A stretch of DNA of 64,000 nucleotides from a virus. This document shows, one piece after another, positions 14,436 to 26,926 of the stretch. Under the pieces are notes generated by a model. The model saw nothing but the letters and a program-made list of their open reading frames with translations. It made no database searches and had not been told where the DNA came from. How positions within the stretch are numbered: the stretch's first letter is position 1; each line of letters starts with the position of its first letter. The stretch covers positions 32,001 through 96,000 of IMG/VR virus record IMGVR_UViG_3300033149_004566; one strand, 5' to 3'. The translations under genes and the position numbers were made by a program.

Positions 14436-14578
14436 TGACTGTTACAATGACTTTATACAATACTAAAGCTGAATTTGACACGGCTGCTGCCGAAGTTAGT
14501 TCTTCTGACATTGTCAATGCTGGCGTGGCACAGCGATACCCTGGCAAGCTCGTGTATTACTTGGTAGTGAAATCTTAA
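14435..14578 (+). CDS. 47-aa microprotein (not in ORF track)
   Basis: MTVTMTLYNTKAEFDTAAAEV...YYLVVKS; TAATG-coupled at both ends. Confidence 0.7.
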   Translation: MTVTMTLYNTKAEFDTAAAEVSSSDIVNAGVAQRYPGKLVYYLVVKS

Positions 14579-17124
14579 TGACCGAACTGGTTGGAAAGCC
14601 CCCAGAAAAGCGCGATGAGCCCGGGGATTCAAAACAGTGGAATCTCCGCCGGCAAAAGGGACGCCCGGTTCCGTTTTCCGCAGAAATATACGAGCCGCAA
14701 ATGCAATACATTCCCATAGAGGAAATGATGGCGCGGCTCCGGACTAAGGGATACTTCAACAAGGAGCCGAAACGAAAAAAGGATTCCTTGCGCGATTACG
14801 GCGGAAACACCGACGAACGGAGATTTGATGCGAACAAGACCGGGCCGCCGCTGACAAAGAAAAAGCGCGGCGAGGCATGGTCTGATAGATACGTTGCTAA
14901 ATACATGGAAGAAGATGACATCGTTCAATCTGTCGAAGAATACGCGATTTTTGGAAGGGCGGAGAGAAAAAGAAAGGAAGCTAAAGAGCTCTATGCCAGG
15001 CCGGCAAGCTCTCTGGCGCGAAAAAAATTCGAGACATACCTGCAAAAATCAACTCACGTGGCTGGAACCAAGGCTCCATCCATTATAGAGGCTAACAAGC
15101 ATCTGATGACAAAGCTAAAGGGCGAGGGAGGATTCCAAGCCGTTTCGACAAAAAAATTAAAAAAATATCTCGAAGAGCACGCAAAGAGCGTTGAGAGCGC
15201 GTATGCCGGTGCCAAGATAAAGCCGGCAAACATCAAGGAGGGCATCGAAGAGATCCTTCAAATGAAGCGAAATCTACCCCTGGTCACCGGAACTAAAGCC
15301 CAAAAATTAGCAGGGCTTGGGCACAAAATAAAACAAACCGAAGCCGGCGTCAAGGTATCGGGCGGAAAGTTTAGAGACAGGAAGTACATTCCGGAGCCGT
15401 TAAAAAAGAGTGGAATGATTTCATTCGGCCAGGTTGAAGACATGCAGGAGCTCATGTCGAATTACAGCATCGGTAATCTCAAGATAGGTGCGAGGCCTTC
15501 TCTTCCGGAAAACACGATGATGAGCGACATCGTTACTTTCAACAAGGAGGCATTGAAGCGCGGCGAGGCCGTCATGGAAATAAATCCAAAATACAGGTCG
15601 ATGTTGACGAAAACCGAGTTGAAAACCATCACTAGAAAGGCGAAGAGCATTTTTGACCTTAAAAAATTGTCCGTGGAGCTGGAGCGAAAGCCCGAAGTTG
15701 GGGTCTTCTTTGACAAGTACAGGAAAAAAGCGGTCAACAAGATGAAAAATTATTGGAAGGCGCAGTACGACATGTATTTTGAAAGTCGATCCAATTGGAT
15801 AAGCAGCTCCAACGAAGCATTGAGCGGCAGAAATCCGTTGGTTGAGGCGGGCCTTCCGGAAGATTATAAAAGTCCCGGATTCACGACTCCTTTCATGATG
15901 ACCGACTCGTCCGTCAGGCTTGAAGAGTGGTCTCCTTTGACCGGAGATCCGTCTTCCGTGGAAACATACCTCGGATCCGATTGGGAATACGCGCCTCTAG
16001 TGAGCAACATGGTGAAAAATGCCATTAGCATGTTGCCGCAGATGAGTGACGAGGACAGGCAGCGAAACGTCGCCAAGTTCACGGCCGTTGCCATGCAGAT
16101 GTGCGGGATGTATTTCGATCCGGATTATCCGCCCGTTGCATTCTTTCCGAAGTCCGAAAGAAAGCGGGTTGCGGAACTGGACAGGCAGATCGTGGACATC
16201 GAGAAAGTCGTGGCGAGGGATTGGTCAAAGTATCCCGACATGAAGAAAAGATACGACAAATTGAGGGACGAATGGGTCGATTTGTCCAAGAGATATAGAG
16301 AAGCATTGATGAATTCAATGTTGAAAGCGGGAGAGGGTGGCGTTGCTAACGTATTATCATATACCATTGATAGAAACGATCCTCAAATCGTGCAGTGGGA
16401 CGAAATCGTGCAGGGGTTTCGGAGAGTGATGTCGACCAAGGAGAACGAGATGCGGGAGCTCGAATACAAGCTCTTGGGATATATGGATCCGTCCAAGCGC
16501 GATCATCTCAAAAAATTAAAGGACATGAGAAAAAACATTGCCGCAAAGTTGGACATCAAGGATTATCTGAGTTCAAATCCGATCAGTTTTGATGTCAAGA
16601 ATGACGTGATCGAAAACCTCAAGAGAGTTTACGAGGAAACCATGTCGTTTGCCAATCATTTCAACATTGATCCCGACATTGCAAGCGCGGGGTTGGAAAA
16701 ATTGATAGTGAAGAAAAAACGAAGGTTTAGATCTTCAAAATACGAGCCGCTGGATGTAAAAAAGATGTATGAAAGCGTGGCACAGTACGAAGTCGATGAT
16801 AAGGGCAATAAGAAAGAAAATGTCAAGAGCAAAAAAACCGAGACCGCGGAGGAAGATCGTGCCACTACAAGATTAAAAGAACTGGCATTAAAAGCTTCGC
16901 AGACCATACCGAAGCCGATGCCGACCCAGCAATCTTTATTGGACATACAATTATTCCTTCAGCAAAATCCGGTTAGCGATGATCCGGCCGTTAATGAGGA
17001 AGTCTACAAGCACCTCGAAAACCTGGCCGGCATAGCACAGGCCGTTGCACAAAAAACTGGAAACTGTTACGTGATAAAAAGAGTGACGTGTGGCGGCGTT
17101 GAGGGGGGCGTTCAGGCTGAATGA
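14578..17124 (+). CDS. Large hypothetical protein (848 aa)
   Basis: Long open frame; charged and helical; no recognised family. Confidence 0.8.
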   Translation: MTELVGKPPEKRDEPGDSKQWNLRRQKGRPVPFSAEIYEPQMQYIPIEEMMARLRTKGYFNKEPKRKKDSLRDYGGNTDERRFDANKTGPPLTKKKRGEAWSDRYVAKYMEEDDIVQSVEEYAIFGRAERKRKEAKELYARPASSLARKKFETYLQKSTHVAGTKAPSIIEANKHLMTKLKGEGGFQAVSTKKLKKYLEEHAKSVESAYAGAKIKPANIKEGIEEILQMKRNLPLVTGTKAQKLAGLGHKIKQTEAGVKVSGGKFRDRKYIPEPLKKSGMISFGQVEDMQELMSNYSIGNLKIGARPSLPENTMMSDIVTFNKEALKRGEAVMEINPKYRSMLTKTELKTITRKAKSIFDLKKLSVELERKPEVGVFFDKYRKKAVNKMKNYWKAQYDMYFESRSNWISSSNEALSGRNPLVEAGLPEDYKSPGFTTPFMMTDSSVRLEEWSPLTGDPSSVETYLGSDWEYAPLVSNMVKNAISMLPQMSDEDRQRNVAKFTAVAMQMCGMYFDPDYPPVAFFPKSERKRVAELDRQIVDIEKVVARDWSKYPDMKKRYDKLRDEWVDLSKRYREALMNSMLKAGEGGVANVLSYTIDRNDPQIVQWDEIVQGFRRVMSTKENEMRELEYKLLGYMDPSKRDHLKKLKDMRKNIAAKLDIKDYLSSNPISFDVKNDVIENLKRVYEETMSFANHFNIDPDIASAGLEKLIVKKKRRFRSSKYEPLDVKKMYESVAQYEVDDKGNKKENVKSKKTETAEEDRATTRLKELALKASQTIPKPMPTQQSLLDIQLFLQQNPVSDDPAVNEEVYKHLENLAGIAQAVAQKTGNCYVIKRVTCGGVEGGVQAE

Positions 17125-17934: not shown

Positions 17935-18320
17935 TTGAAAAGGGCATGTGCCCTATTAGAGCCCCACATAGAGCTAAAAAAATACGTGCCATGATTTCCG
18001 AGTTTGGATTTCGGATAGGCGACCCCGAGCTCAGATCTCCTTTAACTATGGACTTGCTTTTGAAAAATAGAGAAAAAATTCAAAAACAAATTGCCGAAGA
18101 AACGTCAGAAACTGCTCTGGAAATGCTGAATAAATCTCTAAATAAATTGAATGACAGGATAAAGTATCGCGAGGAAATGTTGCGGACGGTTTTATATCCG
18201 AAGGGTAAAGTTCCTTTCTCGATACAAAAAAAGTTTCCGATGTCGTTCTGGTCTACTAAAGGTGGGTTGAGAAATGTTCAAACGGTTGGTGTGAGAAGGC
18301 GTGGACGTAAGAAGCATTAG
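17931..18320 (+). CDS. Hypothetical protein
   Basis: Coupled ORF. Confidence 0.6.
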   Translation: MIEKGMCPIRAPHRAKKIRAMISEFGFRIGDPELRSPLTMDLLLKNREKIQKQIAEETSETALEMLNKSLNKLNDRIKYREEMLRTVLYPKGKVPFSIQKKFPMSFWSTKGGLRNVQTVGVRRRGRKKH

Positions 18321-19989
18321 TCCGTTTTTGGATGATTTTCTAAAAAAATACGATTTCAAGGGCATGGATGATAACAGAATCATGAAGATGCTCTTGTCGT
18401 CTTTAGATTGGTCTACGTTTGCGGAAACGTGGTTTAGAAACCCAATAGATCCCACGCTACCATTAAAATTGGAAAAGTTTCAGCGCCGCATCATAAATTA
18501 TTTTCAATACGGCAAGTGCAGTAACATAATTGTCAAGTGCCCCCGTCAATTTGGTAAAACCACTCTCATATCGATATTGTGTAATTTAATTGCCATTTTT
18601 GATCCGGGTGCTAAGATAGGCCTATTTTCTACATCACACGACCAGTCCAAGGAGATATTGGGTAAGGTCAGGAAATTCATGAGAACGTCGGCATTTTCTT
18701 ACTTACTTGACGATAAAAGCGTTCAAACGCAAACCGAAATAAATTATAAGGATCCTCGCGGCCTTGGGCATGGGTGCAGGATTAAAGCGTATTCTAGTTC
18801 TGGCAAAACCGTTCGTGGCCCCGATTTGACTTACACGTTTATGGATGAAATGGGCCAAATGGACGACGACTTCGTAAATCAGGTTGTCCGTCCGATGGGA
18901 AGGGCTGTTGGAAAGAAAGAACTCGGGGCAAGCACTCCTTTCGGTACGAGGGGCGAGTTTTGGAACTCACATGAGAAGCCGTATCATTGGGAATGTCAAT
19001 CGTGTCATGCTAAGGGCTTTGATGAACCACACCCTTACACGTGCCCGAAATGCGGCGGTTCAGTTCAGACTCTTGGCCAATATAAAGTGTTTGATGTTTC
19101 ACCTCTTGACGTGTCTTGGATCACGCCCGAAAAACTTGCGGCAGAAGCTGCACGTCTCGGCCCGATTGCAGCGCAACAGGAGCTGTTTGGAGAGTTTATC
19201 CCGGCCGGAGATACTTATTTTAGACACGACTGGATAGTGAATGCCAGGGTTTTCACGCCAGAGCAAAATTCAAGATTTTCATCCATGGGAAAACCGTATT
19301 ATACCTATTATCTTTCCACGGATTATGGTAAACAACGTGATAGAGGCGTGATCATGATAGGCCATTTTCAGGATGACGTGTTGTATCTGGATTGGGTCGA
19401 ATCACATCTAAAAATGCCGTATCCAAGATTTCAAGATAGAATGAAAACTCTTTGTGATAGATATAATGTTTCAGAGGCCATTTTGGATGGGAACGGTGTC
19501 GGAATTGCTCTCATAGATTATCTCCGCGAGGACGTGCAGGTGCCGATTTTTACCAACAAGCCCGATTTGGGCCCCGGATATAAGTACGGTAACAAGGAGA
19601 AATTTCAGATGTTGGAAGCTCTTGCCAACATGTTGATACGGAAGAGAGTTCGTTGGCCGTATCATGAAAATCACTCTGACCCGAGGCAGGAAATGTATGA
19701 GTTATACATGATGGAGCAGGAGCTCATCAATTATTCTTATGAATGGGGAAAATCGTCAATCATAATGGGAACTCAGAGCGAGCACGACGATAGGGTCATG
19801 GCTTTGGCACAGCTCGTTGGGGCAACAATGATGACACATTTTGACGATGTCATGCCGTATGGGGCTTCTGACGTGTCAAGAGATGATCGCGGATGGCCGG
19901 TTTTTGACGAGGTCGGGGAAGAATTTGACGTGATGTGGGTTGATAACACGACGGATCCGGAGTACGAAATATATGACACCATCTTCTGA
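18301..19989 (+). CDS. terL: Terminase large subunit
   Basis: Walker A PRQFGKTT, Walker B TFMDE, motif III ASTP, nuclease STDYGK..D, DGNGVG, HDDRVMA. Confidence 0.97.
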   Translation: MDVRSISPFLDDFLKKYDFKGMDDNRIMKMLLSSLDWSTFAETWFRNPIDPTLPLKLEKFQRRIINYFQYGKCSNIIVKCPRQFGKTTLISILCNLIAIFDPGAKIGLFSTSHDQSKEILGKVRKFMRTSAFSYLLDDKSVQTQTEINYKDPRGLGHGCRIKAYSSSGKTVRGPDLTYTFMDEMGQMDDDFVNQVVRPMGRAVGKKELGASTPFGTRGEFWNSHEKPYHWECQSCHAKGFDEPHPYTCPKCGGSVQTLGQYKVFDVSPLDVSWITPEKLAAEAARLGPIAAQQELFGEFIPAGDTYFRHDWIVNARVFTPEQNSRFSSMGKPYYTYYLSTDYGKQRDRGVIMIGHFQDDVLYLDWVESHLKMPYPRFQDRMKTLCDRYNVSEAILDGNGVGIALIDYLREDVQVPIFTNKPDLGPGYKYGNKEKFQMLEALANMLIRKRVRWPYHENHSDPRQEMYELYMMEQELINYSYEWGKSSIIMGTQSEHDDRVMALAQLVGATMMTHFDDVMPYGASDVSRDDRGWPVFDEVGEEFDVMWVDNTTDPEYEIYDTIF

Positions 19990-20746
19990 CTTGCGGCCGA
20001 AAATATCCCTTTTTACGTTATTGCCTTACGTGATTCAGGAGCATAAAGCCAAGCGTGCCGGCTTACACTACGACTTTCGCGTGAAGCGCGGCGAAAATGA
20101 TTGGGAATCCTGGGCGATAAGAAAGGGATTTCCGAAAAAGCCCGGGATAAAACATCTGGCCGCACCGACGCCGAGTCATGATGAATATTGGGCAAAATTT
20201 AGCGGCGTCATACCCAGGGGTTACGGCTCCGGTAGACAGAAAGTCGTTGAAAGCGGAAAAATAGACGTGATAAGGGAGCGAAAGAAAAAAAATAAATCGA
20301 TTACTTTCAAAAAGGGAAAAGATTATTACACCATGATAAAGTTAAAAAAGGGAAAAAATTGGTTGATTTTTAAAAACGAGTCGGTGAAGTGGCGCAGGAC
20401 GAAGAGCGGGGGCAAATTTCCGAAGATCGATGAGATGGAAAAGGGAATGCCAAAAATGACGAACAAGCAATATAAGGAGTTTTACAAGCGGATGTTGGAC
20501 TTGGGCTTGTTGAATCAATATAAAACGATTGGTAAGCCCATAAAACAGGATCATGGGGGCATACCCATAATAGAAGATGGAATGTCGGCTCTTTCGGCTT
20601 ATCCTACAGCTATAGGGGAAGTGTGTCCGAAATGTGGACACCCGGAAATAAAAACGTGGCAGCGTCAGACTAGATCTGCTGACGAACCGATGACGCAGTT
20701 TTTCAGATGTGTCAGGTGCGGATATACCTGGAGGGAATACGATTGA
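19973..20746 (+). CDS. LigD 3'-phosphoesterase domain fused to TFS/TFIIS C-terminal zinc ribbon
   Basis: YVIQEH.A.RAGLHYDFR...SWA..KG.P..PG.K.LA...H...F.GVIP.GYG.G; C-terminal CPKCG...QTRSADEPMT.FFRC..CGYTWRE. Confidence 0.92.
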   Translation: MTPSSDLRPKISLFTLLPYVIQEHKAKRAGLHYDFRVKRGENDWESWAIRKGFPKKPGIKHLAAPTPSHDEYWAKFSGVIPRGYGSGRQKVVESGKIDVIRERKKKNKSITFKKGKDYYTMIKLKKGKNWLIFKNESVKWRRTKSGGKFPKIDEMEKGMPKMTNKQYKEFYKRMLDLGLLNQYKTIGKPIKQDHGGIPIIEDGMSALSAYPTAIGEVCPKCGHPEIKTWQRQTRSADEPMTQFFRCVRCGYTWREYD

Positions 20747-21054
20747 GCGTGACGTATAACGGTTACACGGCAATACAGCCGAGAGTCATGTTGAAAGAAT
20801 ATATTAAGAGGACAAATAATATTCCAGAAAGACGCGATGATAAATATGATAGAAATCCGAAAGGAAAACATGCTAAATTAAAAACAAAAGAACCGAAGAG
20901 ACCCAAATATGATAAGAGTAATAGTAAGCCCGGACTTACCGATGATCAGATTCGTGGAAACCCGAAGGATTGGAAAAATTATACGATCGTGTTAAAAAAT
21001 GTCAAAAAGATGCCGAAAATGGTTTTTGATCAATATGAGAGGTGTAGGGTTTAA
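20743..21054 (+). CDS. Hypothetical basic protein
   Basis: Coupled to the portal start (TAATG). Confidence 0.55.
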   Translation: MSVTYNGYTAIQPRVMLKEYIKRTNNIPERRDDKYDRNPKGKHAKLKTKEPKRPKYDKSNSKPGLTDDQIRGNPKDWKNYTIVLKNVKKMPKMVFDQYERCRV

Positions 21055-22865
21055 TGGACGACGAATATGACGCATGGATGGACGTGTACAAGCCGGAAAG
21101 AGTTGAAATTGAGAATTATGAAGATATAAATGATCTTTCTAATAGCATCGTGTCCATGGAGGTTGGGTACGAAGTTGCCATAAATATAGAAGATACGGCA
21201 CAGGAAGACGTCAATTGGTATTATCAAACGCAGGACGAAGAAATACGCCGCCTGAAAAGGCATCTCATTAAAAAAACACCGCAAAATTTGAGTTGGGCGT
21301 TTTGGGAAGATGATACTGCACAAGCATTTGCCATGGTTATAACTTATACTATAATAGGTGATGGCATAAGAGTGCGACCGAGAAAGGACGGCTTGAAGAA
21401 AAAGAAAAAAGAAAAATTAGAAAGAATTATAGATGATTTCAATAACAATATCAACGAACGCGGAGAAGACGTGTATGATATAATTCATCAAGCCGTGATA
21501 GGTAACGTGATACATGGAAAACAATTATTTAAAAAGGTGTTTAGAAAAGATCCGTACACTGGAAAGGAATATTTGTCTCTTTATGAAATAGACATGAGAA
21601 CCATATCTGAACTTGTAAATCCCATTCATGGATACAGGAAGTTCGTGCAGGATCATTACATTAATGAAGAATTGCGCGACATTGATAGAAAAACATTCAT
21701 GGAAACGTACGATCCTTTTATAAATCCGGAAGATAAAAAAGTGATTAATATGGGAATTGCGAGGCACAGGGTTCCGGTTTATGATAATGAAGTTCTTTTC
21801 TTTAAATTTTATAAAAAGCCCCCAATGAGATCTATTGTTGATCTAATAGTTTATAAAAAATGGATTTATTATTTCATGAAACAGGCCGCCAAAGTTAGGG
21901 GCGTTCCGCCTCCAGTAATTACCGTTGGCAATCAGCAGAGCCATCCGACTTCACGTGATTATCCAAAGTATCTAAAAAGGGCCGCTCAAATTGGTGGAAA
22001 ATTAAAAAATTGGGATGCCCTTTCGATGCCTTGGAATTGGGCAGTACAGTGGATGGAAGGTGGAAGGCCGTTTGATTTCACGCCACATCTTCAATTTATC
22101 AATAGGAGAATTGTTTTCTCATTGCTCGGTTCGATATCTCTCTTGGAAGGCGCATCTGGAGAGCTTCATGGCCATGTCATAGAAACGGTTTGGCTTCGTG
22201 TAATTTCAGCATTTAGAAGAAAAATAGCTAGGGTGTTAGAAAAGTGCTACAATGAAGTACTCAAGATGAATGGCATCAACGAGGAAGTTGTCATTGAGTG
22301 GACGCCTTTACGTGAGCCCATTAGTAAAGCTGAAATTGCCGCGATATTATCATCGTTATTCCAATTGAATGCTCTGAAGGATGTTAATGAGTTACGTGAA
22401 TTATTTTCAAAGAATGGCATAATAGATTTGTCTCCGATGGATGAAGATGAAGAAGAAAAAGGCTACGCTGGTACCGGAGTTGAAGAATTGATAACGTCGG
22501 TTATGCCGGTACAAATGGAAAATAAAATATTAAAACAAAAACTCGAAGAATTTAGTAAAACTGGCGATTTCAATAGAAAACAAGTTCACGTGAAAAATTT
22601 AAAAAGAAGCCTGTCGATGTTGAACAATTCTTTGGGAACTGAACAGGCAAGACCCGAAAAAGCCGTGAAAAAACCGTCGATAAAAACTCCCATGAATCCA
22701 AAACCGGATTCACTTGGTCATTCATCTTTGAAGATACCATCTTTGAAGGTAAAAAAGGAAGGACAGCAATACATGGAAGCATCATCCGACGATGAAAGCA
22801 CGTGTTATGAGGAAGACGGCGTGAAAAAAGGATATTGCCCGGAGGAAATAAAAAATGGAAAATGA
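21054..22865 (+). CDS. Portal protein
   Basis: Position after TerL; 603 aa; GDGIRV, HG...KK, K..GVP pattern. Confidence 0.85.
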   Translation: MDDEYDAWMDVYKPERVEIENYEDINDLSNSIVSMEVGYEVAINIEDTAQEDVNWYYQTQDEEIRRLKRHLIKKTPQNLSWAFWEDDTAQAFAMVITYTIIGDGIRVRPRKDGLKKKKKEKLERIIDDFNNNINERGEDVYDIIHQAVIGNVIHGKQLFKKVFRKDPYTGKEYLSLYEIDMRTISELVNPIHGYRKFVQDHYINEELRDIDRKTFMETYDPFINPEDKKVINMGIARHRVPVYDNEVLFFKFYKKPPMRSIVDLIVYKKWIYYFMKQAAKVRGVPPPVITVGNQQSHPTSRDYPKYLKRAAQIGGKLKNWDALSMPWNWAVQWMEGGRPFDFTPHLQFINRRIVFSLLGSISLLEGASGELHGHVIETVWLRVISAFRRKIARVLEKCYNEVLKMNGINEEVVIEWTPLREPISKAEIAAILSSLFQLNALKDVNELRELFSKNGIIDLSPMDEDEEEKGYAGTGVEELITSVMPVQMENKILKQKLEEFSKTGDFNRKQVHVKNLKRSLSMLNNSLGTEQARPEKAVKKPSIKTPMNPKPDSLGHSSLKIPSLKVKKEGQQYMEASSDDESTCYEEDGVKKGYCPEEIKNGK

Positions 22866-23266: not shown

Positions 23267-25525
23267 ATGATACCCGTGTCCGTATTGATGGAACCGCCCA
23301 AGGTGGTAAAAGATCCTTTAAAATCATCGTCATTGATAAAGTCATTCGTGATGATGAATAAAATGAAATTTAAGGGTCTGGTTCCAAAAATAATGGACGC
23401 TATCAGGCAATCCAGGCGCGTTGTTCAGATGGAAACCGGTGCACGATATCTCAAGAGATACATCGATAACATGTTATATAATAGCATTGTCGATCCGCAT
23501 TTATTGGATAGGATGAAGTCATTCGTGGAAAACACGTATATTCAACACTCTAGAATGTTGCAAGAAGAATTGTATAAATTGAAGATGGTTCCCACGACAA
23601 TGGCCGTCATGACTCCTACTGATGAGGACAGGGTAGAGGATAGAAAGGATACTATAGAAAAAATGGCAAGCCTGGAAGCCGAACGCTTGAGTGCGAGGAT
23701 TCATGACATAATAGATAGGGCTTATCATAATGCCGAACCGTTATACAAAATAAAAAAAGAACTACAAAAATCCATAAAAGTTAGCAAGAAAGAATCCGCT
23801 AGAATTGCCAGAACCGAGCTCATAAAAACCATGAACTTGGCCAGGTTGGAACGTATGACTTCATCGGGGATCGAATATTATCAGTGGGTTTCGGCTCCTT
23901 CGTTTGATGAGAGATTGTGTCCTTTATGTGGCGAATTAAATGGAAAAGTAATAAAGTTGGGCAGGTCGTTTTCGGATTTAGTGCGAAACGAATCATCCAA
24001 GAAAATAATGGGAACTAGACAGATCTATTATCCTCCGGCACATCCGAATTGCAGGTGCACTATAAGGCCATCTTATGCTCCGGTAATTACCAGGCCGTTA
24101 AAAGAACCGAAATTTATAAAGAAAATATTCGATAAGTTTCCTGGCTTGAGGCCCAAAACCTTGATAACACAAAAGATCGGCCCGACTTCGATAGATATCA
24201 TACAGGCGGAAGAATTAGAGGACTGGCACGAATTGCACGATTTATATTTAAATGAATCGAAAAGATGGGGTGGCGATCTTCGTAAGCGATTGATATATCA
24301 GGCGATGGAAGCAAAAAATAGGGCAATGAAGGAAGACATAGAATTATTCGAGCGCGATAACTTGGAGGAAATGGAAAAGCCGAAATGGACGCATTATCCT
24401 TTAACAAAAGATGAAATTTATTATCATTATGCGCGAAATTGGGATAAATTGTATCCGGAATTGAAGGGCCGAAGAGTGGCGATCCGTAACCGCAGGGGCG
24501 TCATTTTACGTAATTGGGAGCCCGGTGGAAAGCCCATAGAAATAAAAAATAAAAATGATTTAAAAAAAGTAGTCTATAATAAAAATGCGGTTGAATTGAT
24601 TCCGGAGTTGAGCACCAAAAGGATGAAACCATCAAATACAAGAAGGTTTCTCGTGGATTTAGATTCAAATAGACCGATAGACGAGACGGTTGTCAAAAAA
24701 ACAGTTGAAAAAATGAAAACGCTGCCGGTCAATAATGTTCAGGTTATATTTTCCGGGAAGCGTGGATATCACGTTAGAGGTGATACAAAAAAGAGTTACA
24801 CGTGGAAAAAAGCGAGAAAAATGCTTCGTGAGGCGATGAAGCCTCTATCAGAACAATACAATGATATAATTTTTGATTTATCACCCATGAAAAGACGTGG
24901 AGTTAGTGTATCTCCTTATAGTTTGAGATATTTGCCGACAGAAAGACAGGGCGTTGCACATCACGTGCAATTTGAAGAGTGGTATGAAAAGGGTGCGTTA
25001 GGCACGCGGGACATAATTCCGGAAAAATTAAAATTGCCTAGCGGAAGAAATGCTTTCTTCAGGAAAACGTTTCTTGGCATCCAAAAACGAAAGTTGTATA
25101 CCGAACAGGAATATAAATTGCAGGCGGCTTTACCGATCATATCGGCATTGAAACACGATCTCGATTTATCCGATTCGGTACAAAAAGAAGCGAAAAGGAT
25201 ATTTAAAAAGGCTTATAGTAGCGGGATAACACAGGGTAGAAAAACATCGTCCAATGCCGCGGTATCTGTTTACAATGCCATGAGATCGTTGGGAATGAGC
25301 AGGCCGATAAAAGATTTTCTTCCGCATGCAAATGTAAAGACCGGATCTTTTGTCAGGGCGGTTAAAAAATTTCAGGACGCTTTAAACTTGCCAAAATTTA
25401 AAGTCGGAAAGCGCGCCGACGTGGAAGAGGCAAGAAAGTATTATAAAAGCATGAAACGTACCGGTATAAGCAAGCGTAAAGTTGCAAGAATGTTTGGCGT
25501 GTCTCCGTCGAGTATAGGTGATTAG
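23267..25525 (+). CDS. Polyvalent head morphogenesis protein: MuF (SPP1 gp7) + LigD-type primase-polymerase + TFB cyclin repeat + HTH
   Basis: RIARTE, YQW...DERLCPLC, PPAHPNCRC; YY..NW..L.P.L.GR, VDLD, FSGKRGYHV; L.LS..V..EA..IF.KA......GR......A..VY.A.R. Confidence 0.9.
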   Translation: MIPVSVLMEPPKVVKDPLKSSSLIKSFVMMNKMKFKGLVPKIMDAIRQSRRVVQMETGARYLKRYIDNMLYNSIVDPHLLDRMKSFVENTYIQHSRMLQEELYKLKMVPTTMAVMTPTDEDRVEDRKDTIEKMASLEAERLSARIHDIIDRAYHNAEPLYKIKKELQKSIKVSKKESARIARTELIKTMNLARLERMTSSGIEYYQWVSAPSFDERLCPLCGELNGKVIKLGRSFSDLVRNESSKKIMGTRQIYYPPAHPNCRCTIRPSYAPVITRPLKEPKFIKKIFDKFPGLRPKTLITQKIGPTSIDIIQAEELEDWHELHDLYLNESKRWGGDLRKRLIYQAMEAKNRAMKEDIELFERDNLEEMEKPKWTHYPLTKDEIYYHYARNWDKLYPELKGRRVAIRNRRGVILRNWEPGGKPIEIKNKNDLKKVVYNKNAVELIPELSTKRMKPSNTRRFLVDLDSNRPIDETVVKKTVEKMKTLPVNNVQVIFSGKRGYHVRGDTKKSYTWKKARKMLREAMKPLSEQYNDIIFDLSPMKRRGVSVSPYSLRYLPTERQGVAHHVQFEEWYEKGALGTRDIIPEKLKLPSGRNAFFRKTFLGIQKRKLYTEQEYKLQAALPIISALKHDLDLSDSVQKEAKRIFKKAYSSGITQGRKTSSNAAVSVYNAMRSLGMSRPIKDFLPHANVKTGSFVRAVKKFQDALNLPKFKVGKRADVEEARKYYKSMKRTGISKRKVARMFGVSPSSIGD

Positions 25526-26093
25526 ATTGCCGATAACAGTAAAAATGAGCTCTTTAAAATTAAAAAGGTTGATTCCACAGGCAATATATCATATAAAAAG
25601 CGAAGCCGCGCAAATATTGATGTTTAGCATAATAGAAGTTTTCATGCAACAGGGACTTCCGGATGAACAATGGAAGCAGTTGTCGGCGATAACTGTCGAG
25701 AAAAAACACTCCAGATCTATTTTGATAGATAAGGGATTTTTGATGAACTCCATTACGGTTGGGCCAATCGATGTTGATAAACCCGTGGAAGTTGGAATAT
25801 TTGAAGGGCCCGCTCTCAGGTATGCTTGGATACATGAGTTTGGTGGCACGATTCCGGTTACTGACAGCATTAGAAAATTTTTTATAGCAAAGACCGCAGA
25901 AGAACGAAGACAACGTCCAGGATTGCCTGAAGATTCTTACACGTGGCATCCTTTGAGAAATGATACTAACGTGATATCAATTCCGGCAAGACCCTTTATG
26001 AGGTGGGGCGCCATCATTGCACGTCCTAAAATTAGTAAAATGGCTGAAAGAGTTTGGTATACGATGATTAATCAGGGATTGATAATTAAATGA
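25518..26093 (+). CDS. Virion morphogenesis protein (Mu gpG/P2 S-like)
   Basis: W..LS..T, LID.G.L.NSI, YAWIHEFGG, IPARPFM. Confidence 0.9.
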   Translation: MIRLPITVKMSSLKLKRLIPQAIYHIKSEAAQILMFSIIEVFMQQGLPDEQWKQLSAITVEKKHSRSILIDKGFLMNSITVGPIDVDKPVEVGIFEGPALRYAWIHEFGGTIPVTDSIRKFFIAKTAEERRQRPGLPEDSYTWHPLRNDTNVISIPARPFMRWGAIIARPKISKMAERVWYTMINQGLIIK

Positions 26094-26926
26094 AAACATT
26101 ACCCATTTATACGTTGCAAGACACTCTAAATCCTGAAATTTGGATAGGAGATGGTAAAAATGCAAGATTGCGAAAAAAAATTAAAAATGTCATCATGGAT
26201 TCCGTTCGTAAATCTTTGGATAAATACGGTGGTAAGCCAAAGCGTATCATCATCGTTGGCTCCTCTGTTGCTTATAGATGGCGAAAAGACGGTGATATTG
26301 ACGTACACGTTGAGGGAAAATTTCCCATCAATGACTATGAGGTGGACGAATATAAAATACCCGGATCAAAATTGACTATAGAGGTGGTATTAACCAATCA
26401 AAAATTTCCCAGTACAACGCGCGCTGAGGGCGTTTATAACGTGGTGATGGATAAATGGATTAAAACTCCAGAACGATTTCCGGGCAAGGTTTATTGGGAT
26501 CCATTAATAGAGGAAGCGTCTTCATGGGCTAGAAAGGTGGATCTCGATATGGGCGAATTAAAACGCGATCTTCTCGAATATATTTTATATAAAGAGAATG
26601 GCGGCGACGAGTCTGCCCTTGCAAGAAAAGCCGACGAAATAAAATCCGATTTGAATAGCATTGTTGATACTTGGGATGCTCTAAAAAATGAAAGAACGAA
26701 GGCACTTTCCGGCGATTCCGACGACACGAGGTTTTTTAAAAATCCGAGCAAGTCATCCATGTTGCAACCGGAAAATTTGATATTTAAAATACTGCAGAGA
26801 TTTCAGTACAACGATTTGATGAAGCGCGTGAAACAACTCGTCAGGGATCTTCAGGACGAGACGAATTTTGATGTTATTGAGAGGATAATAACGAGATTTT
26901 TGAAGAAGGAAAGGTGGATTAAATGA
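26090..26926 (+). CDS. Pol-beta superfamily nucleotidyltransferase
   Basis: LNPEIW...IIIVGSS..Y.W...GDIDVHV. Confidence 0.85.
   Translation: MKTLPIYTLQDTLNPEIWIGDGKNARLRKKIKNVIMDSVRKSLDKYGGKPKRIIIVGSSVAYRWRKDGDIDVHVEGKFPINDYEVDEYKIPGSKLTIEVVLTNQKFPSTTRAEGVYNVVMDKWIKTPERFPGKVYWDPLIEEASSWARKVDLDMGELKRDLLEYILYKENGGDESALARKADEIKSDLNSIVDTWDALKNERTKALSGDSDDTRFFKNPSKSSMLQPENLIFKILQRFQYNDLMKRVKQLVRDLQDETNFDVIERIITRFLKKERWIK

Follow-up and report, generated by a model that had tools for sequence, protein, structure and literature searches.

Secondary-channel factors of RNA polymerase (RNAP), such as TFS, TFIIS, Gre and DksA, are small regulators. To our knowledge, none of them carries a separate nucleic-acid-processing enzyme. 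As seen in the structure of TFS4 bound to RNAP, the linker between the two zinc ribbons contributes, with its N-terminal part, beta-addition strands to the upper jaw. The C-terminal part of the linker packs on the C-terminal ribbon (C-ribbon), which itself is placed in the funnel against the rim helices (PMC8448823). Described here is a viral gene whose product (P0001) joins the linker and C-ribbon of an archaeal TFS to a 3'-phosphoesterase (PE) domain of the LigD type. The gene lies in a window of 64,000 nucleotides, corresponding to bases 32001-96000 of the 112,862-bp IMG/VR virus record IMGVR_UViG_3300033149_004566. At a rough probability of 45%, the PE-TFS protein is a factor that docks on the host RNAP, carries an active 3'-end-processing domain and works together with a second multidomain protein encoded nearby. 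This neighbor combines a MuF head protein with an archaeo-eukaryotic primase (AEP) polymerase and a TFIIB/TFB repeat.

The gene and the parts of its product are the following (coordinates refer to the window).

19973-20746, plus strand: PE-TFS fusion gene (P0001), a single intact open reading frame (ORF) from ATG to TGA, 257 residues.
20024-20380, plus strand: LigD-type PE beta-barrel, residues 18-136 (PDB sequence matches, AlphaFold2 and Foldseek).
20420-20521, plus strand: helical spacer, residues 150-183, without a family match and partly conserved in the orthologue P0006.
20522-20617, plus strand: TFS-type inter-ribbon linker with a GIPIIE strand motif, residues 184-215 (BLASTP, tblastn).
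20618-20743, plus strand: TFS/TFIIS C-terminal C4 zinc ribbon, residues 216-257 (PF01096, 1qyp).
20666-20689, plus strand: acidic catalytic hairpin QTRSADEP, residues 232-239 (from the sequence; identical in P0006).

The PE-TFS architecture is genuine, conserved across deep divergence and extremely rare. An identical protein is present on a separate 117,419-bp contig, and a variant with 255 of the 257 residues identical (99%) on a 3,335-bp JGI contig. The orthologue P0006 (302 residues, 39% identical by BLASTP) was found on a 2,818-bp ENA contig and displays the same order of parts. Its identity to P0001 amounts to 52% in the PE and 32% in segment 137-183. Given these independent copies and the continuous reading frame, it is barely credible that the gene is a chimera of the assembly, the product of a frameshift error or a pseudogene in decay. 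An assembly or frameshift artefact, a doubt raised by an earlier reading of the letters alone (the sequence-only reading), is excluded by the copies on independent contigs together with P0006.

Among some 15 billion proteins, the combination is almost unique. When 1.84 billion cluster representatives were scanned exhaustively with HMMER, P0006 was the one further protein that aligned across both domains. A profile search of 5.8 billion clusters again placed both Pfam domains in the P0001 and P0006 clusters only, and beyond P0001, its copies and P0006 no protein in the searched collections contained the two. The fusion gave no match by tblastn against 50,697 GenBank phage records and no usable match in an ESM Atlas feature search. 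Scans of viral and metagenome contigs with a two-sequence profile returned unrelated PE genes only (a phage PE-ligase on contig L003 and two tandem small PEs on L004). Likewise, no relatives of the virus were found through its portal and terminase large subunit (TerL) among the viral contigs searched.

The N-terminal half was recognized as a LigD PE by Pfam, by PDB sequence matches and by structure. LigD_N (PF13298) covers residues 22-107 (E 7e-16; 58.7 bits, with the cut-off at 31.1), while residues 18-136 match the archaeal PEs 3p4h (Korarchaeum, E 5e-18) and 3p43 (Methanosarcina, E 3e-15). An AlphaFold2 (AF2) model was built on a 43-row alignment from which the TFS rows were left out. It consists of a confident PE barrel (pLDDT, the per-residue model confidence, >94 for residues 11-135) and a confident ribbon, with a helical or disordered tether in between. 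Foldseek retrieved 3p4h, 3p43 and 3n9b at E 5e-8 to 6e-7, with target-length template modelling (TM) scores of 0.67-0.80 (0.80 for 3p4h and 3p43). The eight-stranded PE barrel fold is found in this model and in its Foldseek matches.

The catalytic residues were mapped by means of the numbering of the Korarchaeum enzyme CkoPE (PMC3082917) and a HMMER alignment. The Mn ligands His9, His15 and Asp17 of CkoPE correspond to H24, H32 and D34 in P0001, and the phosphate-binding Arg19 and His51 to R36 and H69. These five essential residues are invariant or nearly so across 156 related PE domains. They are also kept in both orthologues despite the overall identity of 39%, which argues for a catalytic PE. 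The predicted activity is that of a Mn-dependent phosphodiesterase that resects 3'-ribonucleosides, with a weak phosphatase.

The C-terminal half is a TFS C-ribbon. Zn_ribbon_TFIIS (PF01096) matches residues 218-254 (E 1e-17; 63.9 bits, with the cut-off at 21), and in the PDB residues 210-257 match the Thermococcus TFS 1qyp (E 2e-12) as well as the Pol III and Pol I cleavage subunits. The Asp-Glu tip is intact. P0001 contains four cysteines in total (C218, C221, C246 and C249), all of them within the C-ribbon, and Pfam finds no N-terminal ribbon (N-ribbon) of the Rpb9/RpoM type (PF02150), which is matched by the cellular TFS P0110. With no Cys outside the C-ribbon, the N-terminal zinc ribbon is absent from P0001. 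The sequence-only reading had named the LigD PE, the ribbon with its DE tip and the lack of an N-terminal ribbon, and on all three points it was borne out.

What this reading had missed is the extent of the homology, which runs across the whole linker, and the retention of the acidic loop in a diverged, Cys-free orthologue. By BLASTP, residues 182-256 of P0001 align with residues 37-107 of the two-ribbon P0110 at 48% identity, and in tblastn the Caldarchaeales TFS match the full 74-residue probe at 50-58% identity. Since the TFS homology starts at residue 182, the entire inter-ribbon linker is present and the N-ribbon alone is missing. To assess conservation, 76 cellular TFS were extracted from fetched loci and aligned, giving 22 columns that are at least 80% conserved. 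P0001 keeps 21 of these 22. P0006 keeps 17, and the five that it lost are the four zinc Cys and one Ala column that is also changed in P0001. P0006 contains no cysteine at all, yet QTRSADEP and TWREY are unchanged. Because P0006 keeps all the other conserved positions without its zinc Cys, selection acts on the RNAP-facing surface and the catalytic tip. Judged from these sequences, the pattern is hard to reconcile with a ribbon that merely serves as a generic zinc-finger tether. The Cys-free P0006 represents a natural experiment on which part of the ribbon is under selection.

Between the two halves, the AF2 model places spacer helices at residues 152-158, 164-176 and 179-183 (pLDDT 61-75). 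The spacer was considered as an equivalent of TFIIS domain II. This was rejected, as the Foldseek comparison of spacer plus ribbon with TFIIS is too weak (TM 0.23, root-mean-square deviation ~12 Å). The codons between the PE barrel and the TFS linker (20381-20521, n=47) have a GC content at third positions of 0.72, compared to 0.37-0.50 in the remaining gene and its neighbors, in what is a small sample. A second kind of TFS without an N-ribbon was encountered on two ENA contigs of 1,842 bp and 776 bp (P0134 and P0157). These are TFS-like proteins of 107 residues that pass the TFS_arch cut-off (73.5 bits), and a cysteine-free helical N-terminus replaces their N-ribbon.

With a canonical ribbon and linker, the protein might also be a pure modulator of the host RNAP. 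It would then be a viral TFS substitute with which the polymerase keeps running, or a competitor of an inhibitory TFS4-type paralogue of the host, with the PE as replacement anchor or bulky plug. PMC8448823 and PMC5715097 describe that TFS1 and TFS4 compete for one site and that TFS4 is induced by virus infection. However, P0001 and P0006 share just 39% identity overall and 52% in the PE, yet both retain the five essential PE residues, in favor of a catalytic PE. The pure-modulator reading is considered highly unlikely.

The fusion gene is embedded in a densely packed morphogenesis module, which extends on the plus strand from ~10.7 kb to 53.7 kb of the window. Its closest neighbors are the following.

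18301-19989, plus strand: TerL (Pfam TerL_ATPase and Terminase_6N/6C; PHROG 2, terminase large subunit, E 5e-30).
20788-21054, plus strand: small Lys-rich ORF, 88 residues from an internal ATG, no family matches.
21054-22865, plus strand: Mu-like portal, 603 residues (ESM Atlas).
23267-25525, plus strand: MuF head protein with an NHEJ-Pol-like AEP polymerase and a cyclin repeat of the TFIIB/TFB type, 752 residues (NHEJ: non-homologous end joining).

The position of the gene between TerL and portal, as given by the sequence-only reading, thus stands: TerL is identified upstream by Pfam and PHROGs, and the Mu-type portal follows downstream after the small ORF. Pfam and PHROGs gave nothing for the portal protein. 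It was assigned from ESM Atlas, where all ten top family-bearing matches are portal families (Portal_Mu score 0.94; structural TM 0.5-0.7). TerL and the fusion gene share 17 nt, from the start of the latter to the stop of the former, and a GGAG is located ~10 nt 5' of the ATG of the fusion gene. No T-run was seen between the fusion and the portal gene when the sequence was inspected.

Several other features were observed in this module. A CxxC...CxxC zinc ribbon interrupts TerL between the ATPase and the nuclease portion (18985-19068); Pfam DUF7129 matches this insert at residues 229-256 with 24.1 bits, under the cut-off of 30. Directly upstream of the packaging genes, the Lys/Glu-rich ORF 14578-17124 (848 residues) has no Pfam match at E <0.1. 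In the head module, the ORF 26090-26926 (278 residues) directly follows a morphogenesis gene that is Phage_tail_S-like; its match to a nucleotidyltransferase is weak (NTP_transf_2, 18.6 bits) and does not reach the cut-off.

The MuF-AEP-TFB protein mirrors the PE-TFS design, as it too joins a LigD-type domain to a fragment of a basal transcription factor. Phage_Mu_F covers its residues 145-266 (E 1e-14), and the TFIIB repeat is found C-terminally at residues 617-703 (E 3e-12). For the middle of the protein, there is a weak match to the Methanocella NHEJ polymerase 5dmu (E 0.38 for the whole sequence; independent E 0.99 and conditional E 5.6e-6 for the best stretch), in which the DLD and GxRGxH motifs are in register. 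The sole TFIIS-ribbon, the sole TFIIB and the sole LigD_N match of the genome are located in these two genes, which are 2.5 kb apart and flank the portal; the second of them adds the AEP. The MuF-AEP-TFB protein is probably a functional partner of the PE-TFS protein. As a pair, these genes hint that an Asgard virus may possess a coupled device for transcription-priming or transcription-repair.

In the favored reading, the PE-TFS protein is a TFS-derived chimera in which the N-ribbon that anchors at the jaw and lobe has been swapped for a minimal, Korarchaeum-type LigD PE. Its TFS linker and C-ribbon would dock in the NTP-entry funnel of the host RNAP, and the intact Asp-Glu hairpin would reach toward the active site of the polymerase. 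The 80-residue tether would hold the Mn-dependent PE (3'-ribonucleoside resection and 3'-phosphate removal) at the jaw/funnel face. There, the PE could process RNA or RNA-primed 3' ends at a transcribing or stalled polymerase. The gene would be co-expressed with the head-assembly genes, and its product would act in concert with the MuF-AEP-TFB protein. A virus TFS with its anchoring ribbon replaced in this way suggests a new viral route to the host RNAP and to the RNA and DNA ends nearby.

Any polymerase partner would be the host's, since no RNAP beta subunit was matched in the record. Service to a viral RNA polymerase was ruled out on the same ground. A coupling of the PE to a stalled RNAP had been the second suggestion of the sequence-only reading. 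It is the best fit to the conservation pattern, from which we infer it.

The first suggestion of the sequence-only reading, end repair for circularization of the genome, is weakened. In its fuller form, the PE and the AEP of the MuF protein would heal the viral genome ends by an NHEJ-like route, in circularization or repair after entry, and the TFS ribbon would be a mere tether. The NHEJ-based circularization of mycobacteriophages provides a precedent, and in Methanocella NHEJ the PE and Pol cooperate. In PMC4797286, these two Methanocella enzymes are studied as parts of one pathway. In the virus, the PE and an AEP weakly similar to this polymerase are encoded 2.5 kb apart, the two ends of the record form an exact 114-bp direct repeat, and PE-DNA ligase fusions are common in phages. 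On the other hand, neither Ku (PF02735) nor ATP-dependent DNA ligase (PF01068) has a match in the 112,862-bp record, by which a self-contained NHEJ system is ruled out. A generic tether would moreover not keep the RNAP-facing TFS residues and the DE tip while dropping the zinc ligands, as P0006 does, and the TFB core on the polymerase partner is left without explanation. Healing of genome ends is therefore considered unlikely.

The record does encode a T4 Rnl1-family RNA ligase near the genome end (PF09511, E 1.7e-17; L005:1132-2211, minus strand, corresponding to G000 111652-112731 outside the window). The PE could accordingly heal 3' ends in viral RNA repair, together with this ligase mending RNAs cut by host defence nucleases. 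CkoPE-type enzymes indeed favor single-stranded substrates with 3' ribonucleotides (PMC3258152). However, the ligase gene is ~60 kb away on the opposite strand and in a different module, and the record gave no match to an AAA_33-type polynucleotide kinase. RtcB and TBP gave no match there either. In addition, PEs of the minimal type have feeble 3'-phosphatase activity, and such a pathway offers no role for the TFS module. RNA repair is, on this balance, very improbable.

A number of observations weigh against the favored reading of an RNAP-docked end-processing factor, and they concern both domains. At the position of Tyr55 of CkoPE, P0001 has W73 (with Y72 adjacent), so that the active-site Tyr is lacking. 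Also absent from the viral PE is the N-terminal peptide to which bacterial and many archaeal PEs owe their strong 3'-phosphatase activity. With W73 and without the N-peptide, the activity may be confined to the diesterase step. The PE further scores 60.1 bits, below the NCBIfam TIGR02777 equivalog-domain cut-off of 144 bits. Similarly, the TFS half misses the equivalog cut-off of TFS_arch (TIGR01384; 51.7 vs. 64.75 bits, positions 56-101 of 101). Its binding to RNAP is predicted from conservation, and its partnership with the MuF-AEP-TFB protein is proposed from a single virus lineage. We know of no substrate for a PE at RNA polymerase. Finally, the N-ribbon that is missing here constitutes the hydrophobic jaw/lobe anchor of TFS4 (PMC8448823).

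The origin of the TFS half is a further point of this kind. Among the best 80 cellular matches of a pattern-limited scan, the closest TFS are from Caldarchaeales (TACK) and not from Asgard archaea. A recent capture from an Asgard TFS is unsupported, as these 80 matches belong to Caldarchaeales and other TACK, DPANN (e.g., Woesearchaeota) and several euryarchaeal groups; the limited scan pattern applies here as well, and a stretch of 74 residues is too short to yield a reliable tree.

The substitution of the Tyr can be placed in context. In the sixth PE column of the 156 relatives, Tyr occurs 115 times and Trp 20 times, and Trp for Tyr is a recurrent natural variant. The Y55A variant of CkoPE retains 23% of its diesterase activity, and the Tyr is chiefly needed for the 3'-phosphomonoesterase step (PMC3082917). 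CkoPE is also devoid of the N-peptide and shows feeble phosphatase activity with a preference for single-stranded substrates (PMC3258152). The fusion had been called catalytically intact in the sequence-only reading. At the level of sequence this holds for the ribbon and for five of the six PE active-site residues, but not for the Tyr, which is a Trp.

The sequence-only reading had also proposed a packaged polyprotein. The position of the gene is the sole pointer to this: there is no evidence of cleavage, and neither a MuF or portal anchor nor another capsid-targeting domain was found in the PE-TFS protein by Pfam and PHROGs. The location of the gene among head genes makes delivery with the virion a possibility, albeit an unsupported one. 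MuF fusions are regarded as effectors that accompany the DNA on delivery, and the packaged protein T4 Alt modifies the host polymerase (PMC5512222). In the main text of this MuF-effector survey, neither LigD nor TFIIS is mentioned. A more far-reaching version of the favored reading, which we consider distinctly unlikely, would make the two proteins a virus-supplied and possibly virion-delivered pair that seizes host transcription both at promoters and at the funnel of the polymerase. Through the TFB core, the primase-polymerase would be brought to TBP-bound promoters, while the TFS module would place a 3'-end trimmer on RNAP. RNA made by the polymerase or the AEP would then be converted so that it supplies viral DNA synthesis with primers or processed ends. 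If this were true, it would be the first nucleic-acid-processing enzyme to be brought to a cellular RNAP via the site of the secondary-channel factors.

Of all known archaea, the Asgard archaea are the nearest relatives of eukaryotes. The virus described here is an archaeal tailed virus and very probably the published Asgard virus Nidhogg, which is tied to Helarchaeota through CRISPR spacers. The Nidhogg preprint devotes one sentence to the gene, labels it 'ATP-dependent DNA ligase (ligD)' and offers no analysis. The PE-TFS protein has no ligase domain, so that the published label is wrong and is corrected by the present finding. In the literature searched, no paper was found that combines LigD, phosphoesterase and TFIIS.

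Compared to known viral ribbons, the PE-TFS protein takes a separate position. TFIIS-type ribbons in IMG/VR are nearly all from TFIIS of nucleocytoplasmic large DNA viruses (NCLDV), with matches to the ribbon only. These homologues are likewise virus-encoded and have a TFIIS-type ribbon with an RSADE loop. However, in these homologues the ribbon is preceded by TFIIS domain II, the polymerase that they serve is encoded by the virus, and their similarity to P0001 does not extend beyond the ribbon (positions 35-72 of the 74-residue probe). With archaeal TFS (TIGR01384), eukaryotic C11/RPC10 and A12.2, in contrast, P0001 shares the linker, the C4 C-ribbon and the QTRSADEP hairpin, at 48-58% identity to cellular TFS over ~70 residues. 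It differs from TFS in its 136-residue PE barrel and helical spacer, which stand in place of the N-ribbon, and in being encoded by a virus.

The stand-alone archaeal PEs (CkoPE 3p4h, MbaPE 3p43 and Methanocella PE 5dmp) have the same fold, Mn ligands and phosphate-binding Arg and His, and CkoPE also lacks the N-peptide. In contrast to these, P0001 has the Trp for Tyr seen in 20 of 156 relatives, is fused to TFS and resides in a genome without Ku or DNA ligase. The hallmark of bacterial and archaeal NHEJ, Ku plus an ATP-dependent DNA ligase in one genome, is therefore not found; the virus has the AEP polymerase and the Rnl1-type RNA ligase only. With virion-delivered takeover proteins such as T4 Alt and the MuF-effector 'polyvalent' proteins (PMC5512222), the PE-TFS protein has in common the head-gene setting, the adjoining MuF-effector fusion and the likely host RNAP target. 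Unlike them, it contains no MuF, portal or known capsid-targeting part.

The nearest viral counterparts of the PE half are the phage PE-DNA ligase fusions (L003 9944-11257; an Atlas cluster of 514 members, 96% viral). L003 is an unrelated viral contig of 113.6 kb, on which the PE is fused to an ATP-dependent DNA ligase in a protein of 437 residues; judged by eye, two long ORFs near this gene resemble intein-interrupted, RNA-polymerase-like genes. As in P0001, a viral PE forms the N-terminal part of a two-domain protein. The partner, however, differs: in the phage proteins it is an ATP-dependent DNA ligase, whereas in P0001 it is a transcription-factor module.

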